A stretch of DNA of 64,000 nucleotides from Naegleria gruberi (lineage: Eukaryota), in the NCBI GenBank assembly GCA_000004985.1, contig GG738858.1; one strand, given 5' to 3'. Each line of letters opens with the position of its first letter. The first letter of the stretch is position 1. Under the pieces are notes generated by a model. The model saw only the letters and a program-made list of their open reading frames with translations. It made no database searches and was not told the DNA's origin. Of this stretch, positions 47,791-55,649 are shown one piece after another. A program made the translations under genes and the position numbers.

Positions 47791-48927
47791 TTAGAAACAC
47801 TTTCTATGAACAAAACCTGGACCAGCCTCCTCATATTCCTCTTTCGATATCCACATCTGCTGAAAGGTTGCAAGACTCGCGAGGATACTACCTCCAATCC
47901 AAACTGAATACTTTCTTTCAGGTGGGGCGACAACCTTTATCTTCATTGAGGCTGGTGCCAAAGCAGTCAATTCCTTGGTCATTCTTTCAGCAATACCTTC
48001 GAACATGGTATTACCACCTGACAAGACAACATTTCCATACAATTCCTTTCTAATGTCAATGTCACATTTACCAATTGAGTTGAATGCCATTTCATGAACA
48101 CCAGCAGCCTCCATTTTTTCAACCAAATTAGGTTGGAATAAAACTTCTGGACATCTGAATCGTTCGTTACCAATTGTTATCACATTACCATCTGGTAATT
48201 CGTATAACTTTTCCACGGAGGATGATTCAGCAGCAACTTTCATTTCAGCTTCGAAATCTAAAGCAATATAACAGAGCTTTTCCTTAATACCTCTGACAAC
48301 TTCTCTTTCAGCAGTAGTATTGAATGAGTAACCTCTTTCCATCAAAATATTCATCAAACAATCAGTCAAGTCACGACCAGCCAAATCCAATCTCAAAATG
48401 GCATGTGGCAAGGCATAACCTTCATAAATTGGAACAGTGTGTGAAACACCATCACCAGAATCCAAAACTATACCAGTACTTCTACCAGAAGCATACAATG
48501 ACAAGACAGCTTGAATGGAAACATACATGGCCGGAACTGAGAAGGTTTCAAACATGATTTGACTCATCTTTTCTCTATTTGGCTTTGGATTAAAAGGAGC
48601 TTCAGTCAACAAGACTGGATGTTCCTCAGGAGCAACACATAATTCATTGTAGAAGGTGTGATGCCAGATCTTTTCCATATCATCCCAATTAGTAACAATA
48701 CCGTGCTCAATTGGATACCTTAAAGTCAAGACACCACACTTGTATTGAGCTTCATCACCAACATAGGCATCCTTACCAAACATTCCAATCATGATTGACT
48801 TTTGCTTTGGTCTAGCAACAATTGAGGGAAAGACAGCTCTTGGAGCATCATCACCAGCAAAACCAGCTTTACACATACCAGAACCGTTGTCAACAACGAG
48901 AGTTTGAACGTCTTCATAGAAAGACAT
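47791..48927 (-). CDS. Actin (about 80% identical to conventional actin), intronless. The likely start is the Met of [17 protein letters not shown] at 48927; the ORF extends 21 codons further upstream to 48990.
   Basis: [103 protein letters not shown], terminal VHRKCF. A-rich context AAAAAAAACAAATCAAATG precedes the internal Met. Confidence 0.9.
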
Positions 48928-49219
48928 TTGATTTGTTTTTTTTAAAGTTTGTTCATCTGGACAACATTTGACAATTTGAAGTTGACTCAAGTCTTCATAT
49001 CAGAGCTATCAGTCATATCCGTCAAGTAAATGAAAAAAGAACTTTTGAATTTTTGCTGGTTCCTAAATTTAGAAAATATTGAAATGATATGGAGTTGGAT
49101 TGTTCTTTGTTCGATAGTAATTCAAAATAATTCAAAGATTGTTGTGAACATCCCTTGTTGAAGATCAATAGGTAAGAATGCTTACCATTCCCCAAATGAT
49201 TTCATCTATATTTCAGTTT

Positions 49220-50704: not shown

Positions 50705-51094
50705 TTAATAGCTGAAAGCAGCCCAAGGGTTGCCTCCTCTCAATCTCAATACTAAATGCACAGTTGAGTCCTTTTGAAGATTGTAATCATTAATGGTTCT
50801 GCCATCTTCCAATTGTTTTCCTGCATAAATCAATCGTTGTTGATCTGAAGGAATACCTTCTTTATCAAATATCTTTTGTTTCATATTCTCAACAGTATCA
50901 CTCGATTCCATTTCAATTGTAATTGTCTTTCCAGTTAAGGTTTTTACTTGTTTTCCAGCAAAGATGAGTCTTTGTTGATCTGGTGAAATTCCTTCCTTTT
51001 CTTGAACTTTTCTTTTCACATTTTCAATTGAATCATTAGATTCAACTTCCAAAGTGATTGTTCTACCAATGAGTGTCTTGACGAATAATTGCAT
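50705..51094 (-). pseudogene. Degenerate ubiquitin-like gene: Ub(1-49) fused in frame to Ub(5-76) plus an 8-aa tail, with multiple substitutions relative to the near-invariant ubiquitin sequence
   Basis: [49 protein letters not shown] | [80 protein letters not shown]. Canonical ubiquitin differs at 15 or more positions. Confidence 0.6.
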
Positions 51095-51096
51095 TA

Positions 51097-52477
51097 TGTT
51101 TGTTGTTTTTTTTTCTTATTGTTTTTCTTTGAATTCAAAGCATTTCTTTGCATTTTATTCTTGTAAACCTCCATTCCAATAAGATTTGGTTGAAATAATA
51201 TCTCAGTAGTTTTGAATCTTTCATTCCCAAGTGAAATTACATTTCCATCTGGCAATTCTAGACCGTGGGAGGTGAGAAGGATTGACAAATATTTTAAAAA
51301 AAAATTAAGAAGTCACTCAAAAAACAATTTGTTAAAGTCGAGCCGAAGGTTTATTGGACCAAGAGTGAGACAGTGTGTTCAAAGTATCAATTACCACTTG
51401 TTCTTCTAGAAACAAGTACTTCTGGGTTCTTGTACATGAACCTTCGCTTTAATGTACCAACAATTTCAAGTAAATGGGCAGGCACTTATCTAGATGATGT
51501 TTTGGTGAGGTGAATGTAGTAATGGCTGGTGAGGAAGGAAGCAAAGGGAGAACTCTCCTCATGGTGGCTTCTCAAGGTAGCATGCTGAAGGTGGGAATAC
51601 CAACCAATATACCTATTTAGCAGGGTGATGATGAAATCATGATGAGTAATTGTTGTTTGTTGTTTTTTTTTGTTGAATATTTAACGGTCAGAACAGACAA
51701 CTTTCAGCGGTTATTGGTTGGCGCGAAATTACCGTGATGTAACATTTTTTAGCTCACCTCCCTCGGTCTAGGCAATTCATATAAACTTTCTTTCGCTGTT
51801 TCTGCCAAAAAATTACTGGCAACATAACCAGTTTTTTCCTTCATATCCCTGACTAGTTCAGTTTCACCCATCGTGCTGAAATTATATCCTCGTTCCATTA
51901 ACATTTTCTTCAAATAATCTGTCAGGTCTTTGCCTCCTAATTCCAATCTTTTGGTGGCATGTGACAGGGCATATCCTTCATAAACAGGTACTGAATTAGT
52001 GACGCCATCACCTGATTCCAATACTACACCTGTCATTCTACCATTTGCAAATATTGACATGGCACATTGATTTGCCAAACACAAACCTCTCACCTTAAAA
52101 CTTTCAAACATGATTTGTGTCATTTTCACTTTCACATCCTTTGAATTTAGTGGCATTTCCATCAGTAATACTTCATGCTCCTCAGGAGCAACTCTTAACT
52201 CATTGTAAAATGTATGATGCCATATCTTTTCCATATGATACCAATCTGAAATTAATCCACGATCAATTGGATATTTGTAAACATTAATACCCCTCCTACA
52301 CAATGCATAATCTCCAACGTAAGTTTCGATAGAGCCCATTGAAAGGAGGAAGGGTGCTACTTTTCGATGTGAAGTTACTGTGGGAAAGACTGCTCGTGGA
52401 GCATAATCACCAGAAAAACCAGCTTTCATTTGAGAGGAACCATTATCAATGATGAGTGGTGGATTTTCATCAGTCAT
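51097..52477 (-). pseudogene. Truncated divergent actin paralog interrupted by a 512-bp MITE-like insertion. The coding parts are 51771-52477 and 51097-51258; the stop TAA overlaps the ATG of the downstream ubiquitin-like ORF as TAATG.
   Basis: [76 protein letters not shown] | insertion | [28 protein letters not shown], then a basic tail. Lacks about 100 C-terminal actin residues. Confidence 0.7.
51259..51770. mobile_element. Non-autonomous DNA transposon (MITE-like), 512 bp, with 18-bp terminal inverted repeats (TAGACCGTGGGAGGTGAG .. CTCACCTCCCTCGGTCTA, 17/18 match) and an exact 8-bp target site duplication GGCAATTC at 51251-51258 and 51771-51778
   Basis: TIR and TSD read directly from the sequence. 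Removing the element and one TSD copy restores the in-frame actin sequence ..[18 protein letters not shown]... No ORF of significance inside. Confidence 0.8.
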
Positions 52478-52575: not shown

Positions 52576-52646
52576 CTCGAACGCCGGGAATTGAACCCGG
52601 GTCGCCAGAGTGACAGTCTGGAATGCTACCACTATACCACGCCCGA
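52576..52646 (-). tRNA. tRNA-Asp (anticodon GUC), 71 nt
   Basis: Minus-strand read TCGGGCG TG GTA TAGTGGTAG CAT TCCAGA CTGTCAC TCTGG CGA CCCGG GTTCAAT TCCCGG CGTTCGA G. Anticodon loop CUGUCAC. Acceptor stem closes with two G-U pairs. Confidence 0.85.
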
Positions 52647-52779
52647 TTACATACCTTACGAAATCTCACCTTAATTCACCTTAATAACAAATCTCACTCA
52701 ATTCTGGCTAATTTGTATTTATTCAAAGGTATTTATGTTTTTAAAAGCTCCATGAACTTGGCTGGAAATTCAATTAAAT

Positions 52780-54060
52780 GTGGAAACTTCTCTATTTGTT
52801 TCAGATGTGCATTTTCGAAAATGCATCTTTTTTTTCAAATATGAATCACAAATGGACAAAGTTGATGGAAACACAACCAAAAAAATGGATCCACAACTAA
52901 CGTTCAAGGCATACAGCAAGATTGAAAATCATCATCAGGAGAGTTTCGTTTCAAAGTTATTGGAAAAGGAAACTGAAGATTCGGATAAGAAATTGGAATG
53001 GGTTTGCTTGGAGAAAGTGCATGGTAGCAATTTCAGCTTTATTGTTGTTCCTAAAGAAGGATCACAAGATAAAGTTGAAGTATTGAAAGCAAATCGTACC
53101 AATGTTCTTACCATATTAAGTAATTTCTTTGTGGAAGCTCAAAAAGAAGTTTACGAAAGATATTACAAGAGTTGTGTTAAATTATTCGAAATTATTTCTC
53201 AAAATGCAGAAAAATTCAAACGAAAGACTATGGAAACTGAAAGTGAAATTACAAAAATTCACATATTTGGTGAATTATTTGGTGGATACTTTCCAAAATT
53301 GAAAAATGATCAAGATTCGAATGGTATTCGTAAAGCACACATTCAAAAAGGTGTTTACTATTGTCCACATTATGATTTTTACGTATTTGATGTGGCAGTG
53401 ACATTTGGCGACCAAGATACTTGGTTACTTTTCGATGAGGCAGATCCAATTCTTGAAGAAGCAGGATTTAGAGTTAGAGCTAAACCACTTTTTAGAGGTT
53501 CATTGAAGGAATGTTTGGATTTTGATGTGGAAATTAACACGATAATTCCACAAACTTTTTATTCTGACATTTTGACAGAAAATGATATTTTATTTAAGGA
53601 AAAGGAAAATATTTGTGAAGGAGTGGTGATTAAACCTGCTAATGGTACTGTATTTGTCGGATCGAGGGCAATTATTAAGAAGAAGAATTCAAAATTTACT
53701 GAAGTCAATCCTGCCAAAGATAAATCTAAACGAATGAAGAAACAGGAAAAATCTGTGGATCAAGACGAACAAGAAATGATTTCTAATGTGTGGAATGAAA
53801 TTGAGCGATATTTGAATAATAATCGTCTTGATAATGTCGTTTCCAAAGTTGGAAATATTACTAGAGAAAATCTTTCACTTGTTTTGAAGAATTTTGTGAA
53901 CGATGCCATTGAGGATTATGATAAAGATCAACAAGAATTGGGAGAAGAAGGAGCTACCCTATCATCCCTTCCAGTCAACATTCAAAAATCAATCAAGAAG
54001 AAATTGGGATCCACCTGTCAAGCAATTCTTCTAAAATACATGAACGAAAACAAACAATAA
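52780..54060 (+). CDS. ATP-dependent RNA ligase of the Rnl2 family (nucleotidyltransferase motifs I, III, IV, V), intronless, 426 aa
   Basis: Motif I EKVHGSN (KxHGxN lysine-adenylate site). Motif III IHIFGELFGGYFP. Motif IV CEGVVIKPANG. Motif V AIIKKKNSKF. The true start may be the internal Met (MDKVDG) at about 52852. Confidence 0.75.
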   Translation: METSLFVSDVHFRKCIFFFKYESQMDKVDGNTTKKMDPQLTFKAYSKIENHHQESFVSKLLEKETEDSDKKLEWVCLEKVHGSNFSFIVVPKEGSQDKVEVLKANRTNVLTILSNFFVEAQKEVYERYYKSCVKLFEIISQNAEKFKRKTMETESEITKIHIFGELFGGYFPKLKNDQDSNGIRKAHIQKGVYYCPHYDFYVFDVAVTFGDQDTWLLFDEADPILEEAGFRVRAKPLFRGSLKECLDFDVEINTIIPQTFYSDILTENDILFKEKENICEGVVIKPANGTVFVGSRAIIKKKNSKFTEVNPAKDKSKRMKKQEKSVDQDEQEMISNVWNEIERYLNNNRLDNVVSKVGNITRENLSLVLKNFVNDAIEDYDKDQQELGEEGATLSSLPVNIQKSIKKKLGSTCQAILLKYMNENKQ

Positions 54061-54293: not shown

Positions 54294-55649
54294 TTGTTAT
54301 CAATCAATATGAAGGAAATAATAACAATTCATGTCGGAGGGGCCGGATGTCAAATAGGCGATCAGTTGTGGGAGTTATATTGTAAGGAACACGGTATACA
54401 ACGTGCTGCAGATCATCATACCAATAATACAACCTCCATGATGGAATCATCAGCTGCCTTTTCATCAGCAGAGAGTTTGTTCTATGAAACGAGTCATACA
54501 GAAAAGCAACAATATGTTCCATTGGCTATCTTTTTCGATAACGACTCATCAAGAGTGCACGAATCGAGGAAGAGATTTGGTAACTTAATGTCCTCAGACA
54601 ATATGATTGGAGGTAAGGAAGATGCTGCCAATAATTTTGTGAGAGGATGCTACACGATTGGAAAGGAGAATATGGATACAGTCTTGGAGAGGATTAGAAT
54701 ATTGAGTGAGAAGTGTGATAGTTTGCAGGGAATTAATGTTGTGAACTCGTTGGGAGGAGGAACAGGCTCTGGATCAGGAACATTATTGCTTGATAGAATG
54801 AGTATAGACTTTGCAAAGGTTCCAATTCATTTGAATACTGTTGCACCATCTCCAAAATTGTATGATACAGTTGTGGAACCATATAATTTTTGTTGGGCTA
54901 TGGAACCAATGTGTGAAAAGGGATGCACAGCAACTTTTTATGATAATGAGGCCTTGTACAATGTTTGTGGAAATCATTTGGGAATTAATGATCCGAAATT
55001 AGCTGATATTAATCAAATTATTGCACACCACATTTCCACAAGCTTTTCCAGTTGTAGAATTGGATCTAATTGTGCAATGCCTGTTTCATTTGGAGATGTA
55101 AATCAGACACTTGTTCCAATTCCAAACTTTGAATTACTTACCCCTTCATTTGTACCATTTGGTTCTGCTCAGAACGAGTTGAGTATGGCAGAGAGGGGCA
55201 AACTTGCATTTAGTCCTTCCAACACTTTGATTTCTTACAACATCTTGGAAGGAAAAATGCTGAGCTCACTGTTAAGTTATAGAGGAAATGTAACTATGGG
55301 AGATAACTTTGAATGTTTGAGTGCTGTCAAAAAGATGGAGGGTATTTCTATGGGCCCTTCTTGGATTCCAAATACTTTCAGTTGCCACATCTCCAAAGCT
55401 CCAACAACTCTTTTGGATGATTCAGTTCTTGGGGTTGTGCCAAGTGAAAAGATGCTTGCAGTAACAACCAACACAACTGCCATCACCAAAAAATTGAATC
55501 AAATTATGGTAAACTTTGATAAAATGTATGAAAAGAGAGCATTTGTTCATTGGTATGTTGGAGAGGGCATAGAAGATGAATATTTTAGATATGGAAGATC
55601 TATACTCGAAGAAAAGGTTGCCACCTATGGAGAGTTGATTTCACAATAA
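54294..55649 (+). CDS. Highly divergent alpha-tubulin-like protein, intronless (451 aa)
   Basis: MKEIITIHVGGAGCQIGDQLWELYCKEHGIQ. GKEDAANNFVRGCYTIGKE. GTP-binding box SLGGGTGSGSG. TTNTTAI. KRAFVHWYVGEGIEDEYF. Long stretches between these blocks are unlike canonical alpha-tubulin. Confidence 0.75.
   Translation: MLSINMKEIITIHVGGAGCQIGDQLWELYCKEHGIQRAADHHTNNTTSMMESSAAFSSAESLFYETSHTEKQQYVPLAIFFDNDSSRVHESRKRFGNLMSSDNMIGGKEDAANNFVRGCYTIGKENMDTVLERIRILSEKCDSLQGINVVNSLGGGTGSGSGTLLLDRMSIDFAKVPIHLNTVAPSPKLYDTVVEPYNFCWAMEPMCEKGCTATFYDNEALYNVCGNHLGINDPKLADINQIIAHHISTSFSSCRIGSNCAMPVSFGDVNQTLVPIPNFELLTPSFVPFGSAQNELSMAERGKLAFSPSNTLISYNILEGKMLSSLLSYRGNVTMGDNFECLSAVKKMEGISMGPSWIPNTFSCHISKAPTTLLDDSVLGVVPSEKMLAVTTNTTAITKKLNQIMVNFDKMYEKRAFVHWYVGEGIEDEYFRYGRSILEEKVATYGELISQ

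Follow-up and report, generated by a model that had tools for sequence, protein, structure and literature searches.

The presence of a T4-Rnl2-type RNA ligase gene beside a tRNA-Asp gene in Naegleria gruberi nuclear DNA raises the question of where the gene came from, and whether its product has anything to do with the neighbouring tRNA. An earlier sequence-only reading of the 64,000-nucleotide stretch analysed here (the window) had placed the gene in the Rnl2 clade, regarded it as possibly laterally acquired, and suggested roles in the repair or processing of tRNA or non-coding RNA. Our analysis points, at a probability of about 0.8, to an ATP-dependent Rnl2-family RNA ligase of the cytosol or nucleus as the gene product, one member of a lineage-specific set of Naegleria paralogs.

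The gene is real, intact and of the two-domain T4-Rnl2 type. The mechanically called ORF runs on the plus strand from a GTG at 52780 to 54060 (426 aa), but the true start is the ATG at 52852; translating 52852-54057 gives 402 aa that match the N. gruberi annotation XP_002679286.1 along their whole length at 100% identity. The gene was already known, having been annotated since publication of the N. gruberi genome, and Unciuleac & Shuman (2015; PMC4408790) named its product among the five Rnl2 paralogs of N. gruberi in a catalogue of 13 ATP-dependent RNA ligases, reporting also seven Rnl1-type and two RtcB ligases in this organism. A literature search on the accession and locus tag for characterisation of the ligase found it cited in that paper alone. 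The reading frame is one unbroken ORF, collinear over its full length with both T4 Rnl2 and its relatives, which indicates an intronless gene. Its lack of introns had been recognised from the sequence and taken to set it apart from many of its neighbours; the observation stands, but it distinguishes the gene little, because several window neighbours are single ORFs too, among them actin (47794-48990), tubulin-like, ankyrin and Wntless-like genes, each spanning its Pfam model.

Table 1. Features of the ligase gene and the adjoining tRNA gene, in window coordinates. Pfam coordinates were converted from the 426-aa GTG ORF to the 402-aa protein.
Feature	Position	Strand	Remarks
tRNA-Asp(GTC) gene, 71 nt, intronless	52576..52646	-	ARAGORN; Rfam RF00005 54.4 bits, E=2e-10
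Rnl2-family RNA ligase CDS, single exon, 402 aa + stop	52852..54060	+	= XP_002679286.1 / EFC46542.1 / NAEGRDRAFT_47786; ORF and protein identity
NTase (adenylyltransferase) domain, Pfam RNA_ligase PF09414, aa 49-277 of 402	52996..53682	+	E=1.1e-19, profile positions 2-170/171
Motif I KVHGSN, aa 55-60	53014..53031	+	K55 = predicted AMP-accepting lysine, aligned to T4 Rnl2 K35
Motif Ia region KANRT, aa 79-83	53086..53100	+	R82 aligned to T4 Rnl2 R55
Motif III FGELFGG, aa 139-145	53266..53286	+	E141 aligned to T4 E99
Motif IIIa YVFDV, aa 177-181	53380..53394	+	F179, D180 aligned to T4 F119, D120
Motif IV EGVVIKP, aa 256-262	53617..53637	+	E256 aligned to T4 E204, K261 to T4 K209
Motif V KKKNSKF, aa 276-282	53677..53697	+	K276, K278 aligned to T4 K225, K227
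Interdomain linker, lysine-rich, predicted disordered, aa 283-303, ...NPAKDKSKRMKKQEKS...	53698..53760	+	pLDDT <50 at aa 292-299
C-terminal domain, all-helical, Pfam T4_Rnl2_C PF18043, aa 306-390	53767..54021	+	E=2.1e-25, profile positions 3-81/82

The domain content of the protein is shown in Table 1; the PF09414 and PF18043 matches both exceed the Pfam gathering scores, and the four motifs singled out earlier (KVHGSN, FGELFGG, EGVVIKP and KKKNSKF) were all located in the translated ORF. In an alignment of 47 family members the K, H and N of motif I are invariant or nearly so, and the arginine of motif Ia is identical in all 47 sequences. Residues E34, K35, H37, N40, R55, E99, F119, D120, E204, K209, K225, K227, R266 and D292 of T4 Rnl2 are all conserved in the alignment, the last two as R325 and D351 of the C-terminal domain. 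We take K35, H37, R55, E99, F119, D120, E204, K225 and K227, together with R266 and D292 of the C-terminal domain, to be essential in T4 Rnl2 by published mutagenesis. The AF2 model has a pLDDT of 87.7, with a high-pLDDT NTase domain that Foldseek matches to 1s68 and 1xdn, and with four helices and no OB fold in the C-terminal domain (aa 304-400). Low pLDDT is seen in a stretch of ~25 aa after motif III, which is without a counterpart in T4 Rnl2 and is found in bacterial, heterolobosean and REL1 sequences. The lysine-rich linker could possibly contain a nuclear-localisation-like patch.

The assignment to the Rnl2 clade was borne out by Pfam, NCBIfam, PDB and Foldseek, all of which favour Rnl2 over DNA ligase or capping enzyme. 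The sole NCBIfam match is TIGR02307 ‘RNA ligase, Rnl2 family’ (E=2.6e-45, 155.3 bits, profile positions 1-318/326), the best PDB sequence matches are T4 Rnl2 (2hvq, 1.3e-17; 1s68, 6e-14) and Trypanosoma REL1 (1xdn, 1.4e-8), and Foldseek puts the AF2 model closest, among PDB entries, to full-length T4 Rnl2 (2hvr and 2hvq; 385 columns aligned at E=6e-19), with REL1 and the NTase domain of Rnl2 also among the best matches. The TIGR02307 score does not reach the equivalog cut-off of 197.15 bits, and scores of ~156 were likewise obtained for an N. gruberi paralog and for the relative in N. fowleri. The below-cut-off score places the ligase in a divergent subfamily, not outside the Rnl2 family, and its substrate preference might differ from that of T4 Rnl2.

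Other ligase families were considered and rejected. DNA ligases and mRNA capping enzymes gave Foldseek E-values of 2e-5 or higher at 10-16% identity, the C-terminal domain of the Naegleria protein is helical, and the Pfam scan of the protein returned no DNA-ligase or capping domain at E<=0.01. The same scan returned no PF09511 match, which was the ground for rejecting the Rnl1 family, and Rnl5 (NgrRnl/DraRnl) was set aside on the N-terminal position of the NTase domain in the ligase and on a Foldseek E-value of ~1e-4 for NgrRnl, at 12-16% identity.

To our knowledge, the 13 ATP-dependent RNA ligases of Naegleria make up the richest such set in a eukaryote. The other Rnl2 paralogs of N. gruberi are XP_002669886.1, XP_002676530.1, XP_002679917.1 and XP_002672691.1. 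The nearest to the ligase is XP_002669886.1, at 42% identity, the gene model of which is without the motif Ia region. XP_002676530.1, at about 32% identity, is annotated as ‘mitochondrial RNA ligase’, yet it begins directly at the conserved MFKGYSS, and because of this start the label appears to derive from homology only.

In Naegleria fowleri, Naegleria lovaniensis and Willaertia the ligase has close relatives, about 50-55% identical over aligned positions, and more distant Rnl2 members or paralogs are present in Acrasis and Percolomonas. In neighbour-joining trees with Kimura distances, the ligase falls with Naegleria and Willaertia sequences, XP_002669886.1 among them, in a clade (clade A) with 100% bootstrap support. 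As a whole, the heterolobosean Rnl2 sequences group together in a single clade (69-76%) in the three trees for which this was assessed, but not in a fourth, larger-taxon tree; their monophyly stayed intact when 16 viral sequences were added, and in the trees examined no virus, bacterium or kinetoplastid REL is nested among them. An all-eukaryote Rnl2 grouping has only 23% support, and neighbour-joining does not settle the heterolobosean position relative to bacteria, Amoebozoa and REL. Values of dN/dS are 0.13 for the N. fowleri/N. lovaniensis pair of relatives and 0.13-0.25 within clade A. On these comparisons purifying selection acts on the gene family, which is a long-standing resident of Heterolobosea and did not arrive by recent lateral transfer.

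As to origin, a phage, giant virus or bacterium is very unlikely to have donated the gene recently, even though the family is mostly bacterial, phage and metagenomic (2198 representatives at E<=1e-3), with 1355 phage records and with amoeba giant-virus Rnl2 proteins in BFVD. Its eukaryotic distribution is indeed patchy, covering Heterolobosea, some Amoebozoa and kinetoplastids, as the phrase ‘scattered eukaryotes’ in the sequence-only reading had conveyed, and this, like the lack of introns, would suit a foreign origin. Against it, the nearest non-heterolobosean sequences share only about 33-38% identity over aligned positions and phage or viral relatives 34% at most, whereas close relatives are present in four heterolobosean species (three of Naegleria, and Willaertia) and further members in Acrasis and Percolomonas, in a clade holding no nested virus or bacterium. 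The flanking genes are ordinary eukaryotic ones (actin, ubiquitin, tubulin), and comparison with neighbours found no compositional sign of transfer in GC3 (0.266, against 0.25-0.33) or in codon usage (RSCU correlation 0.83, against 0.71-0.90). Thus the proposal of lateral acquisition did not survive either the phylogeny or the codon-usage and GC3 comparison; vertical inheritance in the host lineage is supported at the level at which it can be tested, and an ancient transfer into the heterolobosean ancestor or stem is possible. A viral donor was rejected separately, an IMG/VR scan with the family alignment reaching a maximum of 33-34% identity and the giant-virus Rnl2 proteins of BFVD 20-26%. 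Very improbable too is descent of the ligase, vertically within Discoba, as a REL1/REL2 counterpart acting in mitochondrial RNA processing or editing. Such descent would agree with the position of Heterolobosea as sister group of Euglenozoa (PMC4599027), with the place of REL1 as third among the PDB matches, with the ‘mitochondrial’ annotation of XP_002676530.1, and with the stretch after motif III that the ligase and REL1 have in common. That stretch, however, is also in the bacterial Rnl2 consensus, and identity to REL is 21-27%, below that to bacterial Rnl2. The REL clade stands separate with 100% support, a grouping of Heterolobosea with REL has 0% bootstrap, and a REL1-seeded protein search for REL-like Naegleria paralogs returned kinetoplastid-type sequences only. 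The N-terminus of the ligase extends only 17 aa beyond the position of T4 Rnl2 Met1, three of these residues being Asp, and no presequence was recognised in it by eye, whereas a kinetoplastid REL-like protein has one (MLRRSVARLGVLRATVALRG). We also know of no uridine insertion/deletion editing in Naegleria mitochondria, which counts against a REL counterpart.

With respect to function, the tRNA-Asp gene sits in the 374-bp spacer that separates the ligase gene from an actin-like gene on the minus strand (ATG at 52477); it lies 98 bp upstream of that ATG and shares the orientation of the actin-like gene. Its reported location, about 130 bp upstream of the ligase on the opposite strand, was right as to strand, but 133 bp is the distance only to the GTG, and the true ATG is 205 bp away. 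That the ligase is a tRNA repair or splicing enzyme functionally coupled to this gene is the least probable of the explanations weighed here. The closeness of the two genes is uncommon a priori, with only two tRNA genes in the window, and ligases of other families (Rnl1, Trl1, RtcB) act on tRNA (PMC4408790); Rnl2 enzymes, by comparison, seal duplex nicks rather than anticodon-loop breaks, and seven Rnl1-type and two RtcB ligases are available for such roles in N. gruberi (PMC4408790). The tRNA-Asp is a standard one, transcribed away from the ligase and, in eukaryotes, by a different polymerase. In N. fowleri and N. lovaniensis, no tRNA was found near the close relatives out to a distance of 6 kb, tblastn with eight flanking proteins gave no hit and thus no gene in common between these loci and the window, and gene order at the Willaertia locus is different again. 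Because the relatives have no tRNA nearby and gene order is not shared, the adjacency is a coincidence without functional signal. Only slightly less remote is the prospect that the ligase has lost its activity or is decaying, as a redundant copy in a set of five: the number of paralogs, the missing motif Ia region in the nearest of them and the score under the TIGR02307 cut-off would fit decay, but the ORF is intact, every catalytic residue is conserved, the fold is predicted with confidence, and dN/dS within clade A is low in the range already given.

As an active Rnl2-family ligase of the cytosol or nucleus, the protein would act in three steps, in which Lys55 of motif I would attack ATP to give ligase-AMP, the AMP would be transferred to the 5'-phosphate at a nick, and the RNA 3'-OH would attack the adenylylated end. 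The outcome would be the sealing of 3'-OH/5'-PO4 nicks in RNA duplexes or RNA:DNA hybrids. As in T4 Rnl2, the helical C-terminal domain would help with adenylylation and with recognising the nick; the nick-sealing specificity of Rnl2 enzymes and the role of this domain are summarised in PMC4408790. The substrate would presumably be broken structured or duplex RNA, within the unusually large RNA-repair ligase repertoire of Naegleria. We infer the enzymatic activity, the compartment and the physiological substrate, and regard them as likely.

In N. fowleri and N. lovaniensis an Rnl1-family ligase gene lies 72-92 bp downstream of the Rnl2 relative on the same strand, and in Willaertia the Rnl2 relative abuts a gene for a 2397-aa helicase-RdRP. 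It is conceivable, although unlikely, that in vahlkampfiid amoebae clade-A Rnl2 and an Rnl1-type ligase act as a module of two ligases, for RNA repair or anti-viral defence; the Rnl2-Rnl1 pairing occurs in two closely related species only and is absent from N. gruberi. Were such a module real, the growth of the Rnl2 set to five paralogs would be the product of an arms race against RNA-cleaving toxins or giant viruses and not of housekeeping repair. The ligase itself is of little weight as a discovery, its accession having been named in 2015 (PMC4408790), and its value is as a pointer to the Naegleria Rnl2 enzymes. What the analysis adds is a well-supported Naegleria/Willaertia subclade, the spread of the family across Heterolobosea (Naegleria, Willaertia, Acrasis and Percolomonas), the lack of a specific affinity to kinetoplastid editing ligases, and purifying selection on the ligase.

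Among known systems, T4 Rnl2 (gp24.1; PDB 2HVQ, 2HVR, 1S68) is the closest solved structure by sequence and by fold, with the same N-terminal NTase domain carrying all NTase motifs and the same all-helical PF18043 C-terminal domain. It differs in that identity to the Naegleria ligase is only ~26-30% and in its length of 334 aa against 402, the Naegleria protein owing its extra residues to the 17 aa at its N-terminus, to insertions behind motifs I and III, and to the lysine-rich linker; the gene of the Naegleria ligase is, moreover, a nuclear one of a eukaryote, and its codon usage resembles that of the host. Bacterial Rnl2 proteins (e.g. of Bacteroidota/Prevotella; TIGR02307) are collinear with it over their full length at 32-38% identity over aligned positions and share the GELFGGxYP...IQKGVYYCP segment after motif III, which T4 Rnl2 is without, whereas the heterolobosean proteins form a separate clade under the TIGR02307 equivalog cut-off. 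REL1 and REL2 (PDB 1XDN) have the same NTase fold and motifs and are likewise nuclear-encoded Rnl2-family enzymes of Discoba, but, beyond the differences in identity, grouping and presequence described above, the Naegleria ligase has no known editosome context. In NgrRnl (Rnl5, PDB 5COU), which belongs with the Rnl2 paralogs to the set of 13 ligases catalogued for N. gruberi, the domain order is reversed, an N-terminal domain being followed by a C-terminal NTase.

The ligase gene starts at an ATG at position 52852, not at the GTG at 52780 that opens the mechanical ORF, and translation of 52852-54057 gives 402 amino acids that are 100% identical over the full length to the protein deposited as 'predicted protein [Naegleria gruberi]' (EFC46542.1 = XP_002679286.1 = NAEGRDRAFT_47786), which marks the window as nuclear DNA of N. 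gruberi. A full-text search with its identifiers matched PMC4408790 only, which lists five N. gruberi Rnl2 members by accession, XP_002679286.1 among these. Moreira et al. 2015 (PMC4599027) built a tree with a different N. gruberi Rnl2, whose placement was unsupported, and a literature search found no paper characterising any Naegleria Rnl2 protein. The gene belongs to a known N. gruberi expansion and is catalogued but uncharacterised.

Features of the ligase gene, its protein and its neighbours (window positions unless marked aa)
Feature	Position	Strand	Details
Actin	47794-48990		complete single ORF
Di-ubiquitin-like ORF	50705-51094	-	129 aa; two PF00240 stretches (ubiquitin-like repeats)
Actin-like gene	51749-52477	-	stops after 242 aa; Pfam Actin positions 2-266/410
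tRNA-Asp(GTC)	52576-52646	-	ARAGORN; Rfam RF00005, 54.4 bits
Mechanical ORF	52780 (GTG)-54060	+	one long ORF in region
RNA_ligase PF09414	ligase protein		Pfam E=1.1e-19, above gathering score
T4_Rnl2_C PF18043	ligase protein		Pfam E=2.1e-25, above gathering score
KVHGSN motif	aa 55-60		
FGELFGG motif	aa 139-145		
EGVVIKP motif	aa 256-262		
KKKNSKF motif	aa 276-282		
Divergent tubulin-like gene	54309-55649	+	Pfam Tubulin only 6e-47, Tubulin_C only 1e-8
NHL-repeat protein			neighbour of ligase
Cytidine deaminase			neighbour of ligase
Wntless-like protein			neighbour of ligase
Mitochondrial carrier			neighbour of ligase

The sequence-only reading had assigned the protein to the Rnl2 family on four motifs; all four were located, and the assignment is borne out by both Pfam domains and by the sole NCBIfam match, TIGR02307 'RNA ligase, Rnl2 family' (E=2.6e-45, profile positions 1-318/326). 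At 155 bits, this match stays under the curated equivalog cut-off (197), as do, with equal scores, the N. gruberi paralog and the relative in N. fowleri, whereas a kinetoplastid REL-like protein reaches 283; the heterolobosean proteins thus form a divergent subfamily. The closest solved structures by sequence are T4 Rnl2 (2hvq, 1.3e-17; 1s68, 6e-14), followed by Trypanosoma brucei REL1 (1xdn, 1.4e-8). An AlphaFold2 model built from an alignment of 35 sequences (mean pLDDT 87.7) predicts an N-terminal alpha/beta domain joined by a lysine-rich, disordered linker (residues ~283-303) to a C-terminal domain of four helices. Its top Foldseek match in the PDB is full-length T4 Rnl2 (E=6e-19, 385 aligned columns), with REL1 and the Rnl2 NTase domain next; DNA ligases and the yeast capping enzyme, the families that might have provided better homologs, appear with the Aquifex ligase and NgrRnl (Rnl5) only at E >= 2e-5 and 10-16% identity. 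A 47-sequence alignment shows that the ligase keeps the counterparts of T4 Rnl2 E34, K35, H37, N40, R55, E99, F119, D120, E204, K209, K225, K227, R266 and D292, residues essential in T4 Rnl2 by published mutagenesis.

The genes flanking the ligase are ordinary eukaryotic genes. The adjacent tRNA-Asp does lie upstream on the opposite strand, as first described, in the same orientation as the actin-like gene starting at 52477; the distance of ~130 bp fits the GTG only (133 bp), the gap to the true ATG being 205 bp. The adjacency is incidental, since the relatives' genes in N. fowleri and N. lovaniensis have no tRNA within 6 kb and a search of the window with eight proteins encoded around the N. 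fowleri relative gave no match; the suggested functional link to tRNA finds no support. Likewise, the gene is a single ORF, but this does not set it apart, because several neighbours are single ORFs spanning a whole Pfam model; the N. fowleri, N. lovaniensis and Willaertia relatives are also single-exon. Among the neighbours, the short actin-like ORF and a second actin-like piece in a separate ORF (51094-51288) suggest a large intron or a decaying actin paralog at 51094-52477 (- strand), with the di-ubiquitin-like ORF immediately downstream. The tubulin-like gene carries an unusual insertion past the N-terminal GTP-binding segment and possibly belongs to the divergent tubulins of Naegleria.

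The nearest relative, at 55% identity (BLASTP), is P0002, from a metagenomic contig that also carries eukaryotic kinase and EF-hand genes, followed by proteins of N. lovaniensis (48%), N. fowleri (47%) and Willaertia magna (46%), and by the N. gruberi paralog XP_002669886.1 (42% over aligned positions). Remoter heterolobosean members are N. gruberi XP_002676530.1, a second Willaertia gene, two Acrasis kona genes and a Percolomonas cosmopolitus transcript; amoebozoan transcripts (Soliformovum, Stenamoeba, Arcella, Dermamoeba) and many Bacteroidota-type bacterial proteins show about 30-38% identity. A whole-library HMMER search of 1.84 billion cluster representatives returned 2198 family members at E<=1e-3, a number that falls to 1255 at E<=1e-10 and to 63 at E<=1e-30. 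In neighbour-joining trees (Kimura distances, 100-300 bootstraps), the Naegleria and Willaertia sequences that include the ligase and XP_002669886.1 form a clade with 100% support (clade A), within which the ligase groups with Willaertia and P0002 (71-86%), N. fowleri with N. lovaniensis (100%), and XP_002669886.1 with the metagenomic P0141 (100%).

The proposal of lateral acquisition, if a recent event is meant, is not upheld by these relatives and trees. All heterolobosean sequences form one clade (69-76%) in each of the three trees for which the grouping was assessed, though not in a fourth with more taxa. A grouping of Heterolobosea with the kinetoplastid editing ligases received 0% bootstrap, the REL clade and the T4-like phages each standing separate at 100%. 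None of 16 IMG/VR viral sequences, giant-virus bins included, fell inside the heterolobosean clade or exceeded 34% identity, and the best BFVD structural matches, giant-virus Rnl2 proteins, share 20-26%. Composition gives no foreign signal in a window of ~34% GC: GC3 is 0.266 against 0.25-0.33 in ten adjacent ORFs, and the RSCU correlation with these is 0.83, compared with 0.71-0.90 among themselves. For the gene pair of N. fowleri and N. lovaniensis dN/dS is 0.13. Together these data show a family that is old in Heterolobosea, has duplicated repeatedly and evolves under purifying selection. As to its deeper origin, all eukaryotes group at only 23%, and these trees are compatible both with ancient transfer into the heterolobosean stem and with descent from an older eukaryotic ancestor.

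Some observations on the relatives deserve record. In N. fowleri (L001 7386-8786) and N. lovaniensis (L002 7334-8731), an RNA ligase gene of the Rnl1 family (PF09511, E about 1e-35) follows the Rnl2 relative at a distance of 72-92 bp in the same orientation, so that each species has an Rnl2-Rnl1 tandem pair; the N. gruberi window holds no Rnl1 counterpart. The Willaertia clade-A gene is convergent, at ~49 bp, with a gene for a 2397-aa protein (L008 9603-16796) combining a DEAD/ResIII helicase and a eukaryotic RNA-dependent RNA polymerase domain (PF05183). The nearest N. gruberi paralog, XP_002669886.1, is annotated as a 342-aa protein without the motif Ia segment (R55 equivalent) that its close relative P0141 has; either an intron was wrongly predicted or this paralog is degenerate. 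XP_002676530.1, labelled 'mitochondrial RNA ligase', begins directly with the conserved MFKGYSS and has no presequence ahead of it, and its label is probably a homology carry-over from kinetoplastid REL. On a 425 kb IMG/VR contig (L027 3001-3900), a viral Rnl2 homolog is apparently interrupted right before motif I; the translated ORF (...HDIEVEDNHNFFADDILVHNSNFSFWY) resembles the terminal part of an inserted intein or homing endonuclease.

By analogy with the classic pathway of Rnl2 enzymes, summarised in PMC4408790, we infer the activity and substrates of the ligase, which most likely follows the same route: ATP would adenylylate Lys55, the AMP would be passed to the 5'-phosphate at a nick, and the nick would be sealed by attack of the RNA 3'-OH, the C-terminal domain presumably aiding adenylylation and nick recognition. 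At its N-terminus the ligase reaches just 17 residues past T4 Rnl2 Met1, three of them aspartates, which suggests a cytosolic or nuclear protein, in contrast to the kinetoplastid REL-like protein, which starts with a typical arginine-rich presequence.
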